Position numbers and translations under genes: made by a program. Of a stretch of DNA of 64,000 nucleotides, positions 11,901 through 58,312 are shown piece by piece. This DNA comes from a virus (taxonomy: Duplodnaviria > Caudoviricetes). Every line of letters begins with the position of its first letter. Positions within the stretch are counted from its first letter, which is position 1. The notes beneath the pieces are model-generated. The model saw only the letters and a list, made by a program, of their open reading frames with translations. It had not been told where the DNA came from and searched no databases. The stretch covers positions 12,589-76,588 of the IMG/VR virus record IMGVR_UViG_3300032259_000003. One strand, written 5' to 3'.

Positions 11901-12150
11901 CCGTTGGAACACTCGCATACCGCTCACCGTTCCCACGAAACGCCTTCCGCGCTCCGCTGTGGTTGCTGTACGCGGTGTAGTTATGGCCGCCCGTAATCGT
12001 GGCGGTACGTGCGGCTACCTGTTCGGTCATGGTTGCGCCGCTTGACCCGTCCGCGGTGTAGAGGGCTATTGCGCCGTCAAGCATAACATCAAACCACTGA
12101 GCGCCACCGGCCATTAATATAGGTATTGCATACGCTAAATTCCGTAACAT
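8989..12150 (-). CDS. Large multi-LamG (concanavalin-like) protein, putative fibre/receptor-binding protein
   Basis: 1053 aa, Thr/Ser/Ala-rich. LamG-type segments (ALNFDGSTGYL, LTIGAMNDGS...AVGFYN). Homologue at 46052-49603. Confidence 0.72.
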   Translation of the reverse strand: MLRNLAYAIPILMAGGAQWFDVMLDGAIALYTADGSSGATMTEQVAARTATITGGHNYTAYSNHSGARKAFRGNGERYASVPTAVGLDVGTFSAIIAIKLGVYDTTAETIVHFYTDANNQFKIQHTAANQLTTTHIQTGTTVTTVTTGVPENELIVIAPVVASTAYNLYIPHADGIVTDTDTYAGSISGAFTSLTIGAMNDGSLPLKQGMAINAVGFYNVAKTQAQVQAVYDALAVTLADAPLYNLSPTGDSLSQASYSGRTTSIAVSDLGVSDYTVEVTSNADPVTDVTSLFLRHSVNVSEMVELRFTVAGACEVYEYDPTATLIGTITAVDGALLKFVFAGTALTAYKNGATTASLAVTLATEAEYGTKYYATVAGTHNFDMTVYDTYTQRFANDIQVLNYLNADMYFKNGSLTERLGTGRDLSPNEVRLVEGDRFLFSESDSSLLQTYAAELNTDSGSWMFEGNAYSLGGNSTGKFFKQLSSNDVLELASTTGLNYEVNYVTTDLQAKLTSGGIVLGDNTLVIASMDEATDTAELYTNATANTLSTDTAGVGGRTTGTGNYIYGNDLATSGNDAWYGTFQRMAKLHQLATESLNDMIQAEMVIKNYHANLKSILSPTLALVPQPDATFEDDMTGTTVTGTNLTVSTVRDSIGQYALNFDGSTGYLNLNTTTFTSSFNADEFVLYFRLAFDNVTNTTGNIEYLARLYLNGSNEITFYRNNSSARIEFYRLDPSDSMLVNYTVTDTDLHDYVVRCSVSAGLYELWVDGVLTDTDTTPSAFSTGTYSIVGIGTGSQGSFFRGLDGKLSQFSYSTSALSVTDIMRASNLITANGATWYKHLSDTYTLTKLNNSYGNNLMSSGGSADTLSSATVSALYAPNAQQYIDFTSAGHLNIGLTSLSMNNKRYSFYVQPATNTVSTTLCQAFLIYVDADNYISGYFGTTASQLIVDYRAAGATNQMTFDTAAATVNYLVEIDIPASGGTAELFINGTSTDTVVLTNDMVGTTLSDGNTVVGALNTSNTSHLQGYATNLQITSIPADGLSDYTDAVGTVLS

Positions 12151-12170
12151 ACATACACCTGTAAGTTTAA

Positions 12171-12195
12171 AAGCCCTATAGGTTATATAGGGCTT
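12171..12195 (-). terminator. 10-bp perfect hairpin in the leader of the LamG gene (terminator/attenuator-like)
   Basis: AAGCCCTATA-ggtta-TATAGGGCTT, followed by TTAAAC on the minus strand. Conserved at 49624-49649. Confidence 0.55.
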
Positions 12196-12283
12196 CGCAA
12201 AGGAGGAGAGTAAATATATTTATGACTCTACTCCCATTATATCACATTTTACTTATAGTCATTCCGCTATTATTACAATAACA

Positions 12284-12679
12284 TTACAATGACAATTCAA
12301 TATCCGCTATCACTTCGCTTGCAAACTCTAAAATGCCTTTAACGTCGCGCCAGGTGTAATGACTTTTAAAGCGGATAGACATACATCGTGCAATGTCCGC
12401 CTGCAATTGTTGACCTCTCAATACACTACCCAGCATATATTTACGTTCCAACCGTAGCGCATAACGCTCTTCAACGCCTAGATAATTGCGATATGTGCGG
12501 TGTCGGTTCTCACTCGCATTGCTAAAGCGCCGCTTACCGAAGGCTTGAAAATTGATATTCTGAAATGCCGCGCGTTCTATTGCGAAGCTGTTATGTGTAT
12601 TGAGATGATACTCCGGCAGGGTGACAATATCATTTAATAGCGTTGGGTTGGCTCTAATGGCCTGTATAATATCGTTCAA
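12284..12679 (-). CDS. Putative late transcription regulator
   Basis: 131 aa, TTG start after AGGAG, C-terminal HTH-like segment, last gene before the late operon. Homologue at 49739-50134. Function inferred from position. Confidence 0.45.
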   Translation of the reverse strand: MNDIIQAIRANPTLLNDIVTLPEYHLNTHNSFAIERAAFQNINFQAFGKRRFSNASENRHRTYRNYLGVEERYALRLERKYMLGSVLRGQQLQADIARCMSIRFKSHYTWRDVKGILEFASEVIADIELSL

Positions 12680-12770
12680 ATGTAGCTCCTCTCTTATCTT
12701 ACATAGTATAACACATTATTGAATCGTTCCTTGTTTGGGTTAATTTGTGATAAACTTGGGATAACACACA

Positions 12771-12845
12771 ACCCACCTATACCCACCTATACCCACCTAC
12801 AACCATTAACACCCACCCGTACTTTTTTTGTGGAGTGGGTGTTAA
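12771..12845. repeat. ACCCACCTAT tandem repeat plus TTAACACCCAC/GTGGGTGTTAA inverted repeat
   Basis: Three 10-bp units and an 11-bp stem, seen directly. Equivalent region at about 50228-50302. Confidence 0.75.
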
Positions 12846-12859
12846 CACGGTAGGGTAGG

Positions 12860-13231
12860 TTAACCGGTTCGTTTTTGTTTGTGACGCTCGGCGCTCTCTT
12901 CGTGATACTCTAAAATTTTAAAATACTCATTGGCTAACGTGGTGCGGTCGTCAATCGCTCTATTTTTTGTTACCACACCATACACCACAACATCACGCAT
13001 TTTTTTAGTCCGTACGATCTGGTTCTTTTTACCGACAGCTTTGACCATACCGCGCGACCGCAACTCTTCCAGGCCGCGACGGCTCCGGTTGCCTTTACCC
13101 TGACTATACCGTTCTGACACATCGTACTGAGTCGCGTCGCCGTAACGAATAAAACCGGTTAATACCTCAATGCACCGCTGTAATTGCGCCATACGTGCGA
13201 CCCGTTGATTATAGTTAAATTCTCCGGCCAT
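12860..13231 (-). CDS. Hypothetical protein, winged-helix-like and basic
   Basis: 123 aa; near-identical homologue at 50317-50688. Confidence 0.65.
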   Translation of the reverse strand: MAGEFNYNQRVARMAQLQRCIEVLTGFIRYGDATQYDVSERYSQGKGNRSRRGLEELRSRGMVKAVGKKNQIVRTKKMRDVVVYGVVTKNRAIDDRTTLANEYFKILEYHEESAERHKQKRTG

Positions 13232-17823: not shown

Positions 17824-18741
17824 TTATCCTGTCGCTAAAATTCGGTTACGGCGTTCAATCTCTTCTTGTGATAGTTTGGGCTTGCTTTTGTTCTCAGCAT
17901 AAAATTCGTGATAATGTTCCCCGAACTTGGTCGCGTCTCTCGGAATAGATACGTCGGGGTATTTTTTTGTATACCACACTTTGAACCGTTTTAGATGTTC
18001 CGCGGTACAGTCCGTGTTATTCGCCTTGTGGATACCACACACTACTTTTTTAACTTTGCCAATTCGCGCTCCAATGGTTTTACGTGTGTCTTTATCCATC
18101 GCGTCATACGACTCTATATTGTTATTCCATACGGTAGTCAATAACCAGTCAAATACTTCGTTGCGCTTACGTGGTGCTTTTGGTTCGGGCTTGGGGTCTT
18201 TACCGTTGCCGATGTCCGTTATGCTATCGGCTTGTTGGTCGGAGATGGATTGAGGAACATAGGGTAAAAGCCCCGCGTCGGATTTATCCGACATAGTATT
18301 TGTTTTTTCTTTCTTTACTACCTCTTTATTTTGTACCTCTTTATTTTGTAGTGTGGGGTTTTCCGTGTCCTGGGTTTCCGTAAACGGCTTTCCAGTCAGC
18401 GGCTTATAGTCTGGATTATCGGTCTTTACTTCATAAATGAGGTGGGGTGTGTAGCTCGTAATGCGTTTTGTTTTTTCATCAATGATTTTAGTACGTTCTT
18501 TGATGTAGCCAGCGCTTATCAGCTCTCGAAGGATACGACGGACTTTATCACGGCCACATTGCTGTTGTAAATCAGCTATAATAATGAGCCAATCACTAGG
18601 CTGACTCAATAAATAACCTAATAACCCGCGCGCCTCAAATGATAAAGTCCTATCTTGCAACATATCACGGCGTATCATTGCATAAGGGTTATCTTTATCG
18701 TGCTTTGCTTTTTTTAGTGTCTCGGTCTTTTTTGTGGTCAT
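17824..18741 (-). CDS. Replication initiator (N-terminal winged helix)
   Basis: LSFEARGLLGYLLS...GRDKVRRILRELISAGY HTH, internal repeats, located upstream of the primase-helicase. Confidence 0.75.
   Translation of the reverse strand: MTTKKTETLKKAKHDKDNPYAMIRRDMLQDRTLSFEARGLLGYLLSQPSDWLIIIADLQQQCGRDKVRRILRELISAGYIKERTKIIDEKTKRITSYTPHLIYEVKTDNPDYKPLTGKPFTETQDTENPTLQNKEVQNKEVVKKEKTNTMSDKSDAGLLPYVPQSISDQQADSITDIGNGKDPKPEPKAPRKRNEVFDWLLTTVWNNNIESYDAMDKDTRKTIGARIGKVKKVVCGIHKANNTDCTAEHLKRFKVWYTKKYPDVSIPRDATKFGEHYHEFYAENKSKPKLSQEEIERRNRILATG
18320..18410. repeat. Candidate origin: 15-bp tandem ACCTCTTTATTTTGT x2 plus GGNTTTCC-type iterons
   Basis: Repeats at 18320/18335 and 18357/18372/18386, inside the initiator gene as in lambda O. 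Confidence 0.5.
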
Positions 18742-18743
18742 GA

Positions 18744-19016
18744 CTATTCTTCTCCTTCAAAGTCTGATAAATACCCTGCCTCTGTCAATTCTTTGATAAT
18801 GCGTTTGGCGAAGATTTCCGAACTCTGACGCACGATGTCTGCATAACCAATAGGCTGGTCATCTGTCTGGCTCGCTAAATACACCAATACGCCAATCGCT
18901 TCAAATGATAGGCTCTCATCCTGTACTGTTTCCCGACTCAGGATAAAATAGGCTTTACTGGTTCCGTGTTGGTCGCGGATAATATTAACATCTTCGCTCT
19001 TTTTGTTCGTTGCCAT
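18744..19016 (-). CDS. Stand-alone winged-helix mini-protein, paralogue of the initiator N-terminus
   Basis: QDESLSFEAIGVLVYLASQ...KRIIKELTEAGYL aligns with QDRTLSFEARGLLGYLLSQ...RRILRELISAGYI of 17824-18741. Confidence 0.75.
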   Translation of the reverse strand: MATNKKSEDVNIIRDQHGTSKAYFILSRETVQDESLSFEAIGVLVYLASQTDDQPIGYADIVRQSSEIFAKRIIKELTEAGYLSDFEGEE

Positions 19017-19049
19017 AACTCAAATACTCCTTGAACTAGTAAGCCCTAG

Positions 19050-19078
19050 TTGCATAGAGTCGGGGTTTGTGTTACACT
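19050..19078 (+). promoter_or_regulatory. Antisense promoter TTGCAT-N17-TACACT
   Basis: Consensus spacing. The equivalent in unit B is TTGCAT-N17-TATACT at 57695-57723. Confidence 0.7.
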
Positions 19079-19084
19079 TGGGGT

Positions 19085-19145
19085 ACTTAAGCATATGCTT
19101 CCCTTCCCCGGCTCTACTTTTCGCGAAGTAGGGCTTTCACTTTTA
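19085..19145 (+). ncRNA. Predicted small antisense (counter-transcribed) RNA of the replication operon leader
   Basis: Promoter upstream. Stem-loop 1 (AAGC-atat-GCTT), then terminator hairpin 19111-19134 and a T-rich tract. Structure is conserved with different sequence in unit B. Confidence 0.6.
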
Positions 19146-19161
19146 TTTTGTTGTACCTCTC

Positions 19162-19190
19162 AGTATAACCGAAGTCCTTTTTTGACGCAA
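19162..19190 (-). promoter_or_regulatory. Replication operon promoter TTGCGT-N17-TATACT
   Basis: Consensus spacing; conserved at 57816-57844. Confidence 0.7.
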
Positions 19191-19203
19191 CTAGTTAATG
19201 GTG

Positions 19204-19974
19204 TTAGTTTTGGTCTACTGACTTAAAATAGTCGTTAATTCGCTTGAGTATCTTCTTTGCGTTGCGGTTCCCGTATACCTCGATAAGCCACGTCTCAGGA
19301 TGTTTGTTACTCTTAGATGGATTGCAACCTGTATAACCATTAAACCCGTGTCTATTACCACATAATGGGACCATATTCGTCACTACTGTACCCGGACATT
19401 CTACGCCTGATATTGATGTATCTATTGGTAGCCAATGATCCAATTCGTAGCCTGTGAATAGATCAAATGGCCGCTTACATACCGCGCAAGCGTGGTTAAA
19501 GTATTCGAGCATCGCCTTACAATGTTCATCGGTAAACGTATCAGGCAATGAGTTTTTGCGAGCGATATAACGTTGGTCGTGTACGCGCATCTTATCTCTA
19601 TTTTCTTGTCGATATTGACGCGCATACTCAGCATAGTATTCTTTATTTTCTTGATAGTGTTGACGCTTATACCCAGCATAGTATTCTTTATTCTCTTGAT
19701 AGTGTTGACGATTATATTCAGCGATAGCATCTTTATTCTCTTGTCGACGTTGACGATCATACTCAGCATAGTATTCTTTATTCTCTTGATAATATTGACG
19801 ACAACGCTTAGTGATAGCATCTTTATTCTCTTGATAATATTGACGCTTATGCTCAGCCTCACAAACTTTACACGAGCCCCTTAGCTTACCGGTCTTTTTG
19901 CTTCTAAGGCTATAATATTCAGTTGTCGCAGGCTTACACTCTCCGCATTTCTTGCATGCCTTGGTTTCAGTCAT
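19204..19974 (-). CDS. HNH endonuclease with N-terminal Cys motif and ~15-aa charged repeats
   Basis: CKKC/CKVC, about six RQ(Y/H)YQENK repeats, CAVC...LDHWLP...C...CN.SK. Absent from unit B. Confidence 0.85.
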   Translation of the reverse strand: MTETKACKKCGECKPATTEYYSLRSKKTGKLRGSCKVCEAEHKRQYYQENKDAITKRCRQYYQENKEYYAEYDRQRRQENKDAIAEYNRQHYQENKEYYAGYKRQHYQENKEYYAEYARQYRQENRDKMRVHDQRYIARKNSLPDTFTDEHCKAMLEYFNHACAVCKRPFDLFTGYELDHWLPIDTSISGVECPGTVVTNMVPLCGNRHGFNGYTGCNPSKSNKHPETWLIEVYGNRNAKKILKRINDYFKSVDQN

Positions 19975-20019
19975 GTTCGCTCCGTTTTAACTCGTTATGG
20001 TGTTAGTTTTGGTCTTCAT

Positions 20020-53855: not shown

Positions 53856-54062
53856 TTATCCTTTATCCTCTATTAAATAAGCTTCTTCGACTTCCCATTG
53901 ATATCTAGTCCATTCATTTCTATAATCCCACCACATTGAATCATCATAATCATCTTGAAGATCATCGCAAACTTTTTGCGCGGTGTCTCGATCTGTGTAC
54001 ACCTTGACAACTTCGGGGTAACAGTCACCCAATGTTTTGACAATAACATAAACGAGTTTCAT
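53856..54062 (-). CDS. Hypothetical acidic protein (unit B only)
   Basis: 68 aa, flanked by a 21-bp direct repeat. Confidence 0.7.
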   Translation of the reverse strand: MKLVYVIVKTLGDCYPEVVKVYTDRDTAQKVCDDLQDDYDDSMWWDYRNEWTRYQWEVEEAYLIEDKG

Positions 54063-55987
54063 GATACTTTATCCTTTAGTGATTGATGTCCGGCATATCC
54101 CGGAACAAAATAATATTTAGGGTTATATATCCATGCCTTGTCAGGGTCGGTCTCGAATCGCAGGCGGTGCGGTATCATCTCCATAGGGATACGTTTAACA
54201 ATTTTGCCGTCTTCAAATGGCCGATTGCCAACGCTAGCTTTTACAATATCGAGCCAAAAGCAAGGCGTCTCCTGCCATTGCTCATCCTCGGACTGACTAA
54301 AGACCTGGTTAATCATATAACCGGTGTTGGACTTATCGAATCGGATATAATTCGCGTCGGTTGCTTTTAACGGCTTACCGGCTTCTTTATCGGCTTGGGC
54401 GACTTTGTTTACCTGCGTGGACATGACGATATGCACATTGTTCTGTATAGCAAAGCGCTTCACGTCTTCAAATGCTTGCTCGTATCTATTGATGGCGGAG
54501 TCGCTCGGCTTGGCGTTTAATAGTTGCGCATAATCAAAGAAGACGATCCAGACACGCTGACCTTGAGCGCGTTTGCTCTCTAATACCATTTGCATATCGG
54601 CTAGGGTCTCATCAAGTGTATCCTTCATCTCGAAGTAGTCCGTTTTGCCGGCCCAGGTCTGTATTCTCATACGTGCTTCTCCGAGTGCTTCCATGTGTAA
54701 CGAGCTTAACTTGCGGCCAACCTGCTTCACATTATCTTGCTTCGATCCGAGATAAGCGAAGTGATCCATCAGTTCCGACAATGTAATGGCGCGCGGTTTA
54801 TTATCCACTCTCGATATATAATTCCCGGCGTGACGGACCAACGCGCGGCACATCATCTCTGTTTTACTCCATTCCGGCCCCCACCATAGGACATTTTCCC
54901 CGCGCATGTTTAGCCCGTCTTTGATCGTCTCTAAAAATTGCGTTTTGCCGGTCCCTGTGCCACCACCTATTAAGGTAGTTTTGCCGGTGATAAAGTATTT
55001 TATCGTGCCCTCGAATTTATGTAGAGCCGTGATAGGGTTTAGAATATACCGTTCTACGATAGGCTTCTCTTCTAGCAATGTGAGGAAGATACTATCTAAA
55101 ATTGCGTCACTAGAATTTGCGCCACTCAAGACCGGGTCGGGTTCGGGCTTCGGGTTCTGTTCGTCTGATAATTTAAGCAATTGCTGCAAGCTATCGCCCT
55201 CATATAACTTGCAATAGTCCGCTAGGTCGCCATGCTTCGATAAGGGCATATCCACCAATTCAATCATGGGAATTTGCGCTTTTACCTTTTTGGATACCGC
55301 CGTGCCTTTGTCATCTTTATCATAAGCGTATAGTATCCGGCCTTGCCACTTCTCACTAAGTTCTGTGAGTAGTTCGGGCTTGATGGCATGTTCTCCGCCG
55401 GTTTGAGCAAAGGCCGGTACACCGTGGTACTGTGCCGATATGGTGCTGATCTCTCCATTGCATAGAACAATTACGCCTTTACTCATGGCGATGGCTTTAT
55501 CGAGCCAATACCAACACGCCTTATACCCTGGCGATGATACGTATTTGTCTTTTTTGCTGCCATCAGCATTAACAAGGTTATCAAGGAACCGATAACGTAA
55601 GCCTGTATCAGTCGGATACCTGGCGGCTCTCCGGCCTTTATGGGTGCACAATTCCCATCCGGCCGCTTCTAATGCTTTGCCGGGTATGCTGTGATCCTGT
55701 CCTAGTGCATTAAGGTCGATATATTCTTTGGTTGTATCGGTCGCAGGGTGTAACCCGTGTTCGGGTGTATCAATGCCTAATTTTTTGGCCAGGTCGTATA
55801 AGCTCCCTTCATCGTCGCCGGCGTGATATTTATATGCGCCGTGTTCGCCGTCCGGTTGTACAGTTATCTTGAATGACATGCTATCTGACCCCGGCTTGGT
55901 TGGATGGTTACATATCCATTGTCCGTTTTGATATTTGAGTGGGCCGCGGCTCTCCAAATTCGCTTTGATCTTATCCCAGGTTGTCAT
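54059..55987 (-). CDS. Primase-helicase fusion
   Basis: Near-identical homologue of 15675-17606. Confidence 0.85.
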   Translation of the reverse strand: MTTWDKIKANLESRGPLKYQNGQWICNHPTKPGSDSMSFKITVQPDGEHGAYKYHAGDDEGSLYDLAKKLGIDTPEHGLHPATDTTKEYIDLNALGQDHSIPGKALEAAGWELCTHKGRRAARYPTDTGLRYRFLDNLVNADGSKKDKYVSSPGYKACWYWLDKAIAMSKGVIVLCNGEISTISAQYHGVPAFAQTGGEHAIKPELLTELSEKWQGRILYAYDKDDKGTAVSKKVKAQIPMIELVDMPLSKHGDLADYCKLYEGDSLQQLLKLSDEQNPKPEPDPVLSGANSSDAILDSIFLTLLEEKPIVERYILNPITALHKFEGTIKYFITGKTTLIGGGTGTGKTQFLETIKDGLNMRGENVLWWGPEWSKTEMMCRALVRHAGNYISRVDNKPRAITLSELMDHFAYLGSKQDNVKQVGRKLSSLHMEALGEARMRIQTWAGKTDYFEMKDTLDETLADMQMVLESKRAQGQRVWIVFFDYAQLLNAKPSDSAINRYEQAFEDVKRFAIQNNVHIVMSTQVNKVAQADKEAGKPLKATDANYIRFDKSNTGYMINQVFSQSEDEQWQETPCFWLDIVKASVGNRPFEDGKIVKRIPMEMIPHRLRFETDPDKAWIYNPKYYFVPGYAGHQSLKDKVS

Positions 55988-56207: not shown

Positions 56208-57224
56208 TTATCCTGTCGCTAATATCCGGTTACGGCGTTCAATCTCTTCTTGTGATAGTTTGGGCTTGCTTTTGTTTTGTAGCCTAACCCGTCCTACATA
56301 GTCCGATATAACGGAAGGACTTTGCATCAAACTAGCGGTCGGGTTCTTGGATCGGTACAATTGGACGGCTTTCTCTAATTCCGTGACGCTGACCATTTTC
56401 CCATAATGACCCTGCTCATTTTGGTTTATCTCATCAAAAAACCGCCACTCATCTTTGATCTTCTGCGTCTTCTTACCGCTTAACATGTGTGCAATGTCCC
56501 AGGCGCGGCCATTGGTTAACCCAAGTAATTTTGGAATCACCTTAAATAACTCATACGCATTGTCTTTTTGGGCTTTGACTTTTGTTATACCTTCGTCGGA
56601 TGGCTTCGGTTCGGGTTTTGGTTCGGGCTTGGGGTCTTTACCGTTGCCAATGTCCGTTATGCTATCGGCTTGTTGGTCGGAGATGGATTGAGGAACATAG
56701 GGTAAAAGCCGCGCGTCGGATTTATCCGACATAGTATTTTTCTTACTTATAGGGTTCTTATTAAAAGAGTTCTTATTAGTAGCTCTCTCTGAGCTAGGGG
56801 GGGTAGCTCTCTCTGAGCTAGGGGGTAGCTCTCTCTGAGCTAGGTCATGCTTAATCTGTTGCAAAACGGCTTGCTTTTGCGTCTCAGTTTCGGCTTTTGC
56901 ATAGTCCGTATTGTAGGAATATATCCGATTGAGTTGTATCAAGTTGGCTTTACCTTTGCCTTGACTTTTTACAGTGATAAAACCTAGCTTTTTGAGTCCA
57001 GTTATCGCCCGTTTAACGCTGGCGACGCTTGTATGCGTTTCTTTTGCAATGGTGGCCTGAGATTTGAAGTATTTTGATCCTTGCCGGCCGATAGTTTGCA
57101 CTACATTCGTATAGATAGCCAATTCGATAGGCGAAGTTTCCCGTTGTACAATGATAGGGATACGAGCGTAATAGTATAAAACTTCGTCGGTTCCATCTAA
57201 TTCGTATGATTGATTCGTTGCCAT
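56208..57224 (-). CDS. Replication initiator (HTH N-terminus)
   Basis: KSQATIAKETHTSVASVKRAITGLKKLGFI HTH, internal iterons. Shares linker and C-terminus with 17824-18741. Confidence 0.78.
   Translation of the reverse strand: MATNQSYELDGTDEVLYYYARIPIIVQRETSPIELAIYTNVVQTIGRQGSKYFKSQATIAKETHTSVASVKRAITGLKKLGFITVKSQGKGKANLIQLNRIYSYNTDYAKAETETQKQAVLQQIKHDLAQRELPPSSERATPPSSERATNKNSFNKNPISKKNTMSDKSDARLLPYVPQSISDQQADSITDIGNGKDPKPEPKPEPKPSDEGITKVKAQKDNAYELFKVIPKLLGLTNGRAWDIAHMLSGKKTQKIKDEWRFFDEINQNEQGHYGKMVSVTELEKAVQLYRSKNPTASLMQSPSVISDYVGRVRLQNKSKPKLSQEEIERRNRILATG
56779..56844. repeat. Three palindromic iterons GTAGCTCTCTCTGAGCTAG (candidate origin)
   Basis: 19-bp unit at 56779, 56803 and 56825, each containing TAGCTC-N5-GAGCTA. 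Confidence 0.8.
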
Positions 57225-57226
57225 GA

Positions 57227-57661
57227 CTATTCTTCTCCTTCAAGGTCTGATGATTCTTCTACATCGGTTATTCCCTTCGTAAGATGTTCGGTGACGGTAT
57301 CTATAAACTGGGTCTTGCCGGTTCCTGTGCTACAGGATATCAAGGTTAACTTACCCGTGATAAAACCGGTCACACTCTCGCCATGCCCGTTTAATGGTAT
57401 TACGCCGTCACTTTTTTTTATCTCTGATAATTCCTTCTTTAGTGCTTCATTTTCTGCTAGTGTTCGCTCAAAACATTCTAGGATAACGTCAACAATATCA
57501 GGTTGTGTACTCCTGAGATTATGTCGTTTTTTAAATTCATGTAGGCTTTCTATATCATTGAGTAGCTCATCCAGCACGTCCAACGTCTGAACCATGTCGT
57601 TAAACTTGCTTTGAATGTCGCCATTCTTGTACTGTTTGGTATTACGGTGTTTGTCATACAT
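57227..57661 (-). CDS. Small protein carrying an isolated helicase Walker A-like segment
   Basis: FITGKLTLISCSTGTGKTQFIDT aligns with helicase FITGKTTLIGGGTGTGKTQFLET. Confidence 0.7.
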   Translation of the reverse strand: MYDKHRNTKQYKNGDIQSKFNDMVQTLDVLDELLNDIESLHEFKKRHNLRSTQPDIVDVILECFERTLAENEALKKELSEIKKSDGVIPLNGHGESVTGFITGKLTLISCSTGTGKTQFIDTVTEHLTKGITDVEESSDLEGEE

Positions 57662-57694
57662 AACTCAAATACTCCTTGAACTAAGAGGCTCTGG

Positions 57695-57723
57695 TTGCAT
57701 GGAATAGGGGGTTGTGTTATACT
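57695..57723 (+). promoter_or_regulatory. Antisense promoter TTGCAT-N17-TATACT
   Basis: Equivalent to 19050-19078. Confidence 0.72.
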
Positions 57724-57728
57724 TGGGG

Positions 57729-57800
57729 TACATATGAGAATATTCTCTGCGTTACCCCTATCCCGGCTTTGTGTTTGCGCACAGAGCCTTCACTTTTTAT
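57729..57800 (+). ncRNA. Predicted small antisense RNA (unit B variant)
   Basis: Stem-loop 1 (GAGA-atat-TCTC core), terminator hairpin 57765-57788 and a T-rich tract. Confidence 0.6.
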
Positions 57801-57815
57801 TTTGTTGTACCTCTC

Positions 57816-57844
57816 AGTATAACCTAAGTCCTTTTTTGACGCAA
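57816..57844 (-). promoter_or_regulatory. Replication operon promoter TTGCGT-N17-TATACT
   Basis: Equivalent to 19162-19190. Confidence 0.7.
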
Positions 57845-57857
57845 CTATCTAATGGTG

Positions 57858-58067
57858 TTAGTTTTGGTCTTCAAACAAACTCGCAGGGTCAACACCTAAC
57901 ACGTTGCAGATAGCAATCATTTTACTAACCCGTAACCACGCATCACCGCGTTCCAGTTGGGATATGGTTTCCCGTCCATAGCCTAGTTGGTCCGCAATGT
58001 CCTTTTGCGTGTATCCGAGCGCTTTGCGCCGTTGTTTGAGTTTGGCAATGATGGTTTGCTCATTCAT
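57858..58067 (-). CDS. XRE-family HTH regulator
   Basis: Homologue of 20020-20232. Confidence 0.88.
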   Translation of the reverse strand: MNEQTIIAKLKQRRKALGYTQKDIADQLGYGRETISQLERGDAWLRVSKMIAICNVLGVDPASLFEDQN

Positions 58068-58312
58068 TCGCTATCCTCAAATAATGTCGCAGTTGAGCCC
58101 GTTGCCTCGTAAAATTCCCATACTTCCAGAATATGCTGAAACCCGTCAATCATTTGTTGTAGTTCTTGTTTGTTGATTACAAAACTAATCCCTAGCATTG
58201 GTGCACCGTCCCCCGTTGGGTGAATGTCAACCTTGACATATTCTCTTGTTAGCGGTCCTCGAACGCTCAGTTTCATCTTGTTAATATTGACAATGATGGC
58301 TTGCTCATTCAT
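58064..58312 (-). CDS. Hypothetical protein (unit B only) starting with a copy of the XRE gene's first codons
   Basis: MNEQAII... start at 58312; 22-bp repeat with 58046-58067. Confidence 0.6.
   Translation of the reverse strand: MNEQAIIVNINKMKLSVRGPLTREYVKVDIHPTGDGAPMLGISFVINKQELQQMIDGFQHILEVWEFYEATGSTATLFEDSE

Follow-up and report, generated by a model that had tools for sequence, protein, structure and literature searches.

What occupies the 196-nucleotide (nt) gap between an XRE-family helix-turn-helix (HTH) gene and the replication genes of an uncultured tailed phage? The DNA in question is a window of 64,000 nt, positions 12589-76588 of the 76,588-nt IMG/VR virus record IMGVR_UViG_3300032259_000003; coordinates below are those of the window. 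Self-comparison revealed that the record consists of two related phage genomes of ~38 kb each, arranged head to tail, which we call units A and B. The gap in unit B (57662-57857) holds a predicted promoter, leader and antisense gene, and a counterpart layout in unit A spans 19017-19203. Judging from these sequence features, it is rather probable that replication-gene expression is under antisense control exerted through the leader.

A predicted convergent antisense gene in the replication leader

Every gene near the leader is on the minus strand in both units. The inferred sense promoter of unit B (TTGCGT-17-TATACT; 57816-57844, minus strand) is identical in unit A (19162-19190), and transcription is predicted to start at ~57808-57810. 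An A-rich 5′ leader follows, and the sense leader RNA would extend for ~148 nt to the start codon of the first gene (57662-57809, minus strand). The unit A counterpart occupies 19017-19190 on the same strand, with the leader at 19017-19154. The Shine-Dalgarno sequence of the first replication-operon gene, AAGGAG (57672-57677, minus strand), sits in a 25-nt block that is identical in the two units.

A second promoter lies within the unit B leader on the opposite strand (TTGCAT-17-TATACT; 57695-57723, plus strand). It is predicted to direct an antisense RNA of about 68 nt (57730-57800, plus strand) composed of a short 5′ tail, a weak stem-loop 1, a C-rich linker and a terminator hairpin (57765-57788, plus strand) followed by TTCACTTTTTATTTT. 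The antisense gene of unit A (19050-19145, plus strand) has the same organization, with a promoter TTGCAT-17-TACACT at 19050-19078, a predicted RNA of ~60 nt at about 19085-19145 and a terminator at 19110-19135. In unit B the T-tract of the antisense gene ends near 57806 and the stop codon of the HTH gene is at 57858-57860, with the sense promoter in between. Complementarity between antisense RNA and leader covers the leader's 5′ half, where the 5′ arms of the two long-range helices described below are located. For sense leaders and antisense RNAs alike, the predicted folds are more stable than those of shuffled controls (z-scores between -2.0 and -4.1; -3.8 for the leader and -3.4 for the antisense RNA of unit B).

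Both terminator hairpins were recovered independently by a plus-strand terminator scan. On the plus strand their predicted stability is -13.0 kcal/mol in A and -14.1 in B, as against -7.5 (A) and -9.0 (B) kcal/mol on the minus strand, where G.U pairs of the plus strand turn into C.A mismatches. This strand-specific stability suggests that selection has acted on the hairpin within a plus-strand RNA. A small antisense RNA gene is the best explanation we can offer for a plus-strand terminator and a well-spaced conserved promoter in a region where there are no plus-strand genes. The preliminary description of this locus had listed promoter boxes, a ribosome-binding site, stems and loop cores, all of which are present where it placed them, and its proposal that the leader is structured and contains a small, convergent antisense gene is supported by the plus-strand promoter and terminator in both units.

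We considered several other identities for parts of this region and set them aside. Plus-strand open reading frames (ORFs) exist at 57695-57913 and 19050-19226, but as protein genes they would have a TTG start that coincides with the -35 hexamer, no ribosome site and a frame that crosses the terminator. The hairpin was rejected as a minus-strand terminator, given that no U-tract follows it on that strand. An RNA primer or RNA-based origin was discounted in view of the primase-helicase and the iteron-bearing initiator that the phage encodes, and a type I toxin in view of the hydrophilic character of the leader peptide. As a separate observation, the convergent promoters (57694-57723 and 57816-57845) form a 30-nt imperfect inverted repeat with the common pattern GTTGCRT-N16-TTATACT.

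Compensatory divergence between units A and B

The two leaders were aligned on conserved anchors (GUGAA, GUACCCC, AUGCAAC and UAGUUCAAGG); MAFFT misaligns the variable 5′ block. With these columns, 57 of 61 nt of the promoter and 5′ leader are identical between A and B, as are all 20 nt of the ribosome-site block and 26 of 31 nt in the block that comprises the antisense -10, its start region and the inner 3′ arm. By our own count, the antisense -10/start part alone (GUACCCC...CCCC) is identical at 23/25 positions, and AUGCAAC, the sense-strand reading of the antisense -35, is the same in both units. The variable 5′ block has 40/62 identical positions and an indel. The antisense -35, -10 and start region are thus islands of conservation, while the promoter spacer and the flanks vary. 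Divergence is focused in paired segments, unlike the even spread of a simple module swap. It had been noted earlier that promoter boxes, ribosome site and flanks are kept while the paired regions have changed together, and this agrees with our counts.

Two long-range helices are predicted in the sense leader. In unit B the outer stem joins AGGCUCUG (5′ arm, 57782-57789, minus strand; plus-strand letters CAGAGCCT) to CAGAGCCU (3′ arm, 57686-57693, minus strand; plus-strand letters AGGCTCTG), the latter preceding the antisense promoter and not part of the antisense RNA. The inner stem joins GGGAUAGGGG (57755-57764, minus strand), within the antisense target, to CCCCUAUUCC (57701-57710, minus strand), which is in the antisense-promoter spacer and contains UAUUCC, a candidate anti-Shine-Dalgarno sequence. 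The corresponding outer stem of unit A is at 19041-19048/19129-19136. The inner stem has 10 pairs in B, one of them G.U on the sense strand, and 11 positions in A (19055-19065/19106-19116), including one C.A mismatch on the same strand.

The outer helix consists of eight Watson-Crick pairs in both units, five invariant and three changed on both sides (A-U to G-C, C-G to U-A and A-U to G-C). The inner helix retains four invariant G-C pairs; among its other columns alignable in both units there is one further unchanged G-C pair, three show double compensatory changes and two are changed on one side (A-U to G.U, and the C.A mismatch of A to U-A in B). Together the two helices accumulate six double and two one-sided changes with no broken pair, and the compensatory divergence claimed in the preliminary description is thereby borne out. 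Because the antisense RNA does not include the 3′ arms, the covariation is attributable to the sense leader. When 10-mers were drawn at random with the composition of the leader, an 8-bp match in the 5′ part arose with P=0.0011 (A) and P=0.0016 (B), and random inner-arm extensions equal the observed pairing at P=0.004 (A) and P=0.002 (B). The long-range pairing in both units exceeds chance.

The outer 5′ arm (57782-57789) is also the 5′ arm of a local hairpin, which makes the outer helix and the local hairpin mutually exclusive. In unit A the predicted state with outer and inner helices (-37.4 kcal/mol) is favored over the local hairpin (-36.0) by 1.4 kcal/mol, and in unit B the local hairpin with the inner helix (-41.6) is favored over outer and inner helices (-38.4) by 3.2 kcal/mol. 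Three nucleotides of B (57788, 57785 and 57782) each have two alternative partners, one in the local hairpin, which is complementary to the antisense terminator, and a distal one in the outer helix. At two of these positions the nucleotide has changed between A and B along with its two partners. At the third, the 5′ base and the distal partner changed and the local partner stayed A, which converts a C.A mismatch to U-A.

This pattern bears on two readings in which the RNA itself is secondary or irrelevant. In the first, which follows a proposal made for lambda pR/pO, firing of the antisense promoter would throttle the replication genes by polymerase collision over the ~75-bp overlap. The promoters do face each other, with start sites ~80 nt apart and an extended common sequence; in lambda it is pO activity, and not the OOP level, that affects replication (PMC3985674), and in pIP501 antisense output rises when the rep promoter is repressed and convergent transcription thereby relieved (PMC5703833). 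Interference alone accounts neither for the covariation of 3′ arms located beyond the overlap with the 5′ arms nor for the maintenance of a strong, plus-strand-specific terminator hairpin, and we consider it quite unlikely as the main control.

The second of these readings takes the symmetric elements as DNA operators for the XRE-HTH protein, the first-gene product or the initiator, and the symmetric changes as altered protein specificity. It draws on two perfect 12-nt palindromes at the same position, GAGAATATTCTC in B (GAGA-ATAT-TCTC, 57736-57747) and AAGCATATGCTT in A (AAGC-ATAT-GCTT, 19089-19100), which form only 4 bp as RNA hairpins, and on the DNA-binding proteins encoded downstream, which differ between A and B. 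The B palindrome could serve as antisense stem-loop 1 or as an operator and is unique in the window; each palindrome occurs once, with no second operator copy. The arms of the outer and inner helices, 45-95 nt apart, are too distant for a dimer operator, and the terminator hairpin differs in stability between the strands, which speaks for RNA. As a general explanation a DNA site is thus highly unlikely. It can hold for stem-loop 1 alone and leave the antisense explanation intact.

Recurrence in relatives and possible modes of control

The leader had no blastn match among 50,697 phage records. Exact-pattern scans of IMG/VR with four conserved blocks gave either no match or chance matches in an unrelated coding region (L004-L006), pattern scans of metagenome contigs gave none, and single-protein locus searches with the primase-helicase also found none. 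No DNA relative or close protein relative turned up in phage records, IMG/VR, metagenome contigs, GTDB genomes or a set of 5.8 billion proteins. Homologues of the 338-amino-acid (aa) initiator were limited to itself, the unit A protein and one distant match, and the nearest primase-helicase outside the record is 43% identical.

More distant relatives of the primase-helicase allowed us to ask whether the layout recurs. A triad consisting of a sense promoter, an antisense-strand terminator and, 60-95 nt further, an antisense promoter was found in L007, L009 (=L025), L010, L011, L012 and L029. In these six lineages, whose primase-helicases are 32-43% identical to that of the window, it lies in a 150-240-nt gap just upstream of the initiator genes. 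The sequences of the relatives' triads cannot be aligned with the window. Shuffled sequences are expected to yield 0.1-1.8 terminators per 500-1500 nt on both strands, or ~0.1 per strand per 200-nt gap, and the occurrence of the triad in six independent lineages in addition to the window is well beyond chance. A further relative, L013, has a triad at the start of the operon. Two successive triads can be seen in L013 (1134-1309 and 1819-1961), the second inside a called gene of 122 aa that is possibly a miscall. TTGCAT-like -35 boxes recur in L007 and L010, which may reflect a host promoter preference.

How would such an antisense RNA act? Transcription from the promoter just past the XRE-HTH gene would yield a leader of ~150 nt, and the convergent promoter within it would yield an antisense RNA of ~60-70 nt that ends at its own terminator shortly before the sense promoter. 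By pairing with the 5′ arms, the antisense RNA would free the 3′ arms, which adjoin the ribosome site. The freed 3′ arms could then pair with that site, through ACUCU:GGAGU in unit A and through CUCUU:AAGGAG or UAUUCC:GGAGUA in unit B. With more genome copies there would be more antisense RNA, less translation of the first replication gene and less initiator. Refolding that hides the ribosome site, as modeled for plasmid pSK41, is the likeliest mode of such control, and we advance it only tentatively, as a possible and unproven one. In a folding calculation for unit A with the antisense target sequestered, the freed ACUCU does pair with GGAGU, and the mean unpaired probability of the ribosome site falls from 0.56 to 0.21.

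Several findings weigh against antisense control through the leader. The minimum-energy fold of the unit B leader already hides the ribosome site (through CUCUU), and blocking the target changes the unpaired probability there only from 0.24 to 0.21; the anti-Shine-Dalgarno switch put forward in the preliminary description is therefore reproduced by folding in A and not in B. Its specific pairing, TATTCC with GGAGTA, can form but is not preferred in B (-10.6 vs. -13.3 kcal/mol for CUCUU:AAGGAG, a cost of 2.7). The effect on ribosome-site accessibility is inconsistent in distant relatives. The sense and the antisense promoter both have a weak -35 hexamer that matches only 3/6 consensus positions, and neither is listed by a promoter scan, the T-tract of the terminator is interrupted (TTCACTTTTT), and stem-loop 1, with only 4 bp and a perfectly palindromic DNA sequence, could be a protein site. 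The covariation comes from two sequences, A and B. The triad is absent from L008, L014 and L026, and among ~50 more distant loci an antisense terminator is recognizable in 12 of 57 gaps and a sense terminator in five. (The 12/57 count comes from a scan restricted to the gaps; an earlier terminator scan of the upstream regions of ~50 relatives was noisy, with 6-bp stems.) Thus, the layout is common in this lineage and not universal, and its enrichment is mainly among the nearest relatives.

A different route to the ribosome site would be through a short ORF in the leader. The possible ORF of unit B has 22 codons (57665-57733, minus strand), with its ATG under the antisense 5′ end and its TGA 3 nt before the main ATG. 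Here, as with CopA/tap-repA of R1 or repY-repZ of I-complex plasmids, the antisense RNA would block the start of the ORF, whose translation through the 3′ arms would otherwise open the ribosome site. An ATG ORF in the same frame is found in unit A (24 codons, from 19094 to 19020 on the minus strand, as against 57733 to 57665 in B), its start codon is 2-10 nt from the predicted antisense 5′ end in the two units, its TGA falls in the conserved block, and in A a purine-rich GGGAAGGGAAG stands just upstream. Unit B, on the other hand, has no good ribosome site ahead of the leader ATG, an open frame of ~23 codons is not unusual in random sequence, the ORF is mostly shared conserved sequence for which A and B are not independent, and distant relatives lack a comparable ATG ORF. 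Such leader-peptide coupling is unlikely.

Of the known antisense systems, RNAI of pSK41 resembles the cassette in target position and proposed refolding. This RNA of ~83 nt acts in the rep leader of staphylococcal RepA_N plasmids, where its binding has been proposed to refold the leader and sequester the ribosome site (PMC5703833). The shared features are a small antisense RNA (predicted at ~60-68 nt here) with two stem-loops, a single-stranded spacer and a target well upstream of the translation start. In contrast to pSK41, the initiator here is an O-like/DnaD-like winged-helix protein with no RepA_N match in a Pfam scan, the element belongs to a tailed phage, neither sequence nor Rfam comparison reveals any similarity, and antisense-induced sequestration appears in the folding of unit A only. 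The system of pIP501 and other Inc18 plasmids, in which CopR and RNAIII act on repR, likewise has an XRE-HTH gene that immediately precedes the rep promoter, with a convergent antisense gene encoded in the leader (PMC5703833). It works by transcription attenuation, whereas the terminator scan found no sense-strand terminator on the minus strand in 57400-58200 or 18700-19500; attenuation of the pT181/pIP501 type is thus unlikely here. Unit A further differs in having an HNH gene between the HTH gene and the promoter.

Among phages, a parallel is offered by lambda OOP, a short antisense RNA with its own promoter and terminator, encoded between a CII/Cro-like gene and an O-like iteron-bearing initiator gene, and the pO/oop unit has been linked to replication control and to the exclusion of phages of the same replicon type (PMC3985674, PMC3349717). 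OOP overlaps and targets the 3′ end of cII; the RNA predicted here stops 50 nt or more before the HTH gene, its only complementarity is to a non-coding leader transcribed from an internal promoter, and it has no sequence similarity to OOP. As in CopA/CopT-tap of R1 and RNAI-repY of I-complex plasmids, an antisense RNA in the rep leader is combined with a possible short ORF that ends beside the rep start, with long-range leader pairing that may affect the rep ribosome site and with sequence variants that may define specificity groups. The differences are that support for the leader ORF is weak here, that no pseudoknot activator could be identified and that no Rfam match, CopA included, was obtained at E<=10.

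The immunity RNAs c4 of P1/P7 and CI of P4 also resemble the present case, as phage small RNAs in which complementarity to the target differs between sister phages and sets specificity. Those RNAs arise by processing of sense transcripts, and it is antirepressor or early operons that they control. Here we are dealing instead with a predicted convergent countertranscript on a replication leader, and no Rfam match was found, the C4 family included. Overall, the window had no Rfam match at gathering score and neither leader had a relevant match at E<=10, with CopA (RF00042), plasmid countertranscript RNA families, RNAI, C4 and sar among the families covered. The cassette probably represents plasmid-style countertranscript control in a phage and does not amount to a new category of mechanism. 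Antisense control of initiators is textbook knowledge for plasmids and is poorly documented for tailed phages outside lambda OOP. The presence of the cassette in an uncultured phage lineage (nearest proteins ~43% identical) and its recurrence in six relatives suggest a widespread regulatory layout that has no name.

Specificity of the two units, gene neighborhood and phage setting

A and B differ in their paired segments, initiators and iteron-like repeats, and each unit therefore probably responds mainly to its own antisense RNA. Calculated duplex energies, on which this prediction rests, give a net gain of -81 kcal/mol for the cognate A-A pair and -85 for B-B, and of -10 and -12 kcal/mol for the cross pairs. 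In sequence, A and B look like different replicon types. As near-isogenic genomes that differ at paired leader nucleotides, they constitute a natural experiment, with ready-made compensatory mutants for studying the switch mechanism and the evolution of specificity.

The preliminary description took the diverged antisense/target pairs for incompatibility-type determinants, which would have been selected for allowing both A and B to replicate within a single cell. In favor of this, everything that makes up the replicon (stems of antisense RNA and leader, first gene, initiator and iteron-like repeats) differs while neighboring DNA is 89-96% identical, cross pairs have weak predicted duplexes, the two units were recovered from the same sample, and plasmid families diversify in a like manner (PMC5703833, PMC10724649). 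Against this, the loops of the two antisense RNAs hardly differ (AUAU in both; UCGC vs. UUGC), and what decides compatibility in I-complex plasmids is single nucleotides of the loops and not the stems (PMC10724649). A and B also have the same leader 5′ end and the same 3′ tail of the antisense RNA, no lysogeny or partition genes were found in the record, nothing points to a plasmid or lysogenic state, and the A-B join may be an assembly path through a shared block of 99-100% identity. We regard selection for incompatibility as doubtful.

A broader and unlikely version holds that the antisense/leader pair, the initiator and the iterons together form a fast-evolving "replication immunity type" in phages that probably live on Chloroflexota and have no recognizable lysogeny genes. 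The antisense RNA would cap the phage's own replication and shut down co-infecting kin of the same type, and three-way compensatory change of a 5′ arm nucleotide, its local partner and its distal partner would create types that escape this brake. If true, this would explain the coexistence of sister genomes with swapped specificities, which occur at similar depth in one sediment sample.

The relationship between the two genomes is visible along the entire record. Blocks common to A and B are 89-96% identical, and one block of 2.7 kb is 99.3% identical. The first 105 nt of the record exactly match both later copies of the 2.7-kb block, and the contig ends fall there. The order is shared block, A, shared block, B, shared block, with the join made through a block of 99-100% identity. 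The A-B tandem may be either a real hetero-concatemer or an assembler path through two circular genomes that share a block, and Logan contigs of the source sample are too fragmented to settle the junction either way. The join and the contig ends are both within the shared block, and A and B may or may not be physically linked or co-resident. The main sequencing run that contains this DNA is probably that of the source sample. A second sequencing run, from an aquatic sample, contained only low-depth fragments of the 144-aa gene and did not cover the leader, and there were no RNA runs among the sequencing runs listed as containing this DNA.

The gene that adjoins the leader promoter upstream encodes the XRE-family HTH protein of 69 aa (57858-58067, minus strand), which matches Pfam HTH_3 (E=8e-16) and PHROG transcriptional regulator and CII-like families; its position is like that of CopR of pIP501 or of a CII/Cro-like regulator. 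The first gene under the leader (144 aa; 57227-57661, minus strand, with its ATG at 57661) has no family match in Pfam or PHROG, and the first replication-operon genes of A and B are unrelated. It is followed by the replication initiator, a winged-helix, O-like/DnaD-like protein of 338 aa (56208-57224, minus strand) with matches to PHROG replication-initiation families, and by a primase-helicase of 642 aa (54059-55987, minus strand; Pfam DnaB_C and Toprim_2, PHROG primase/helicase). In a test of the downstream genes, PHROG replication-initiation, O-like and DnaD-like matches were obtained for proteins of 338 aa, 305 aa and 90 aa. The initiators of A and B are 42% identical over 56% of their length. 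The B initiator gene contains an iteron-like array of three units of 22-24 nt (56779-56848; GTAGCTCTCTCTGAGCTAGGGGGG), each with an internal inverted repeat, and the A gene an array of 2.9 units of 15 nt (18308-18350). These arrays are probably origins within the initiator gene, as in lambda O.

Regarding the host, the nearest relatives of the primase-helicase in prokaryote genomes are nearly all in metagenome-assembled genomes of Chloroflexota (Anaerolineales, Aggregatilineales and Chloroflexia; L015-L024), a possible host clue for the phage lineage and nothing beyond. Integrase, ParA, ParB and actin-like segregation genes were looked for in the whole record and none was found. The relative L007, whose primase-helicase is 40% identical, carries an ALP_N/Alp7A-like actin segregation gene (12031-13092), and from this gene some members of the lineage may be phage-plasmids.

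In unit A, an endonuclease VII/HNH-like gene of 256 aa (19198-20018) is located between the XRE-HTH gene and the leader promoter and is flanked by a 22-nt direct repeat. Unit B has a single copy of the 22-nt repeat and no HNH-like gene, and the unit A gene looks like a free-standing homing-endonuclease insertion. Within it, imperfect tandem repeats at 19594-19857, with start offsets of 90 and 135 nt, code for repeated YYQENKEYYAEY-like segments.

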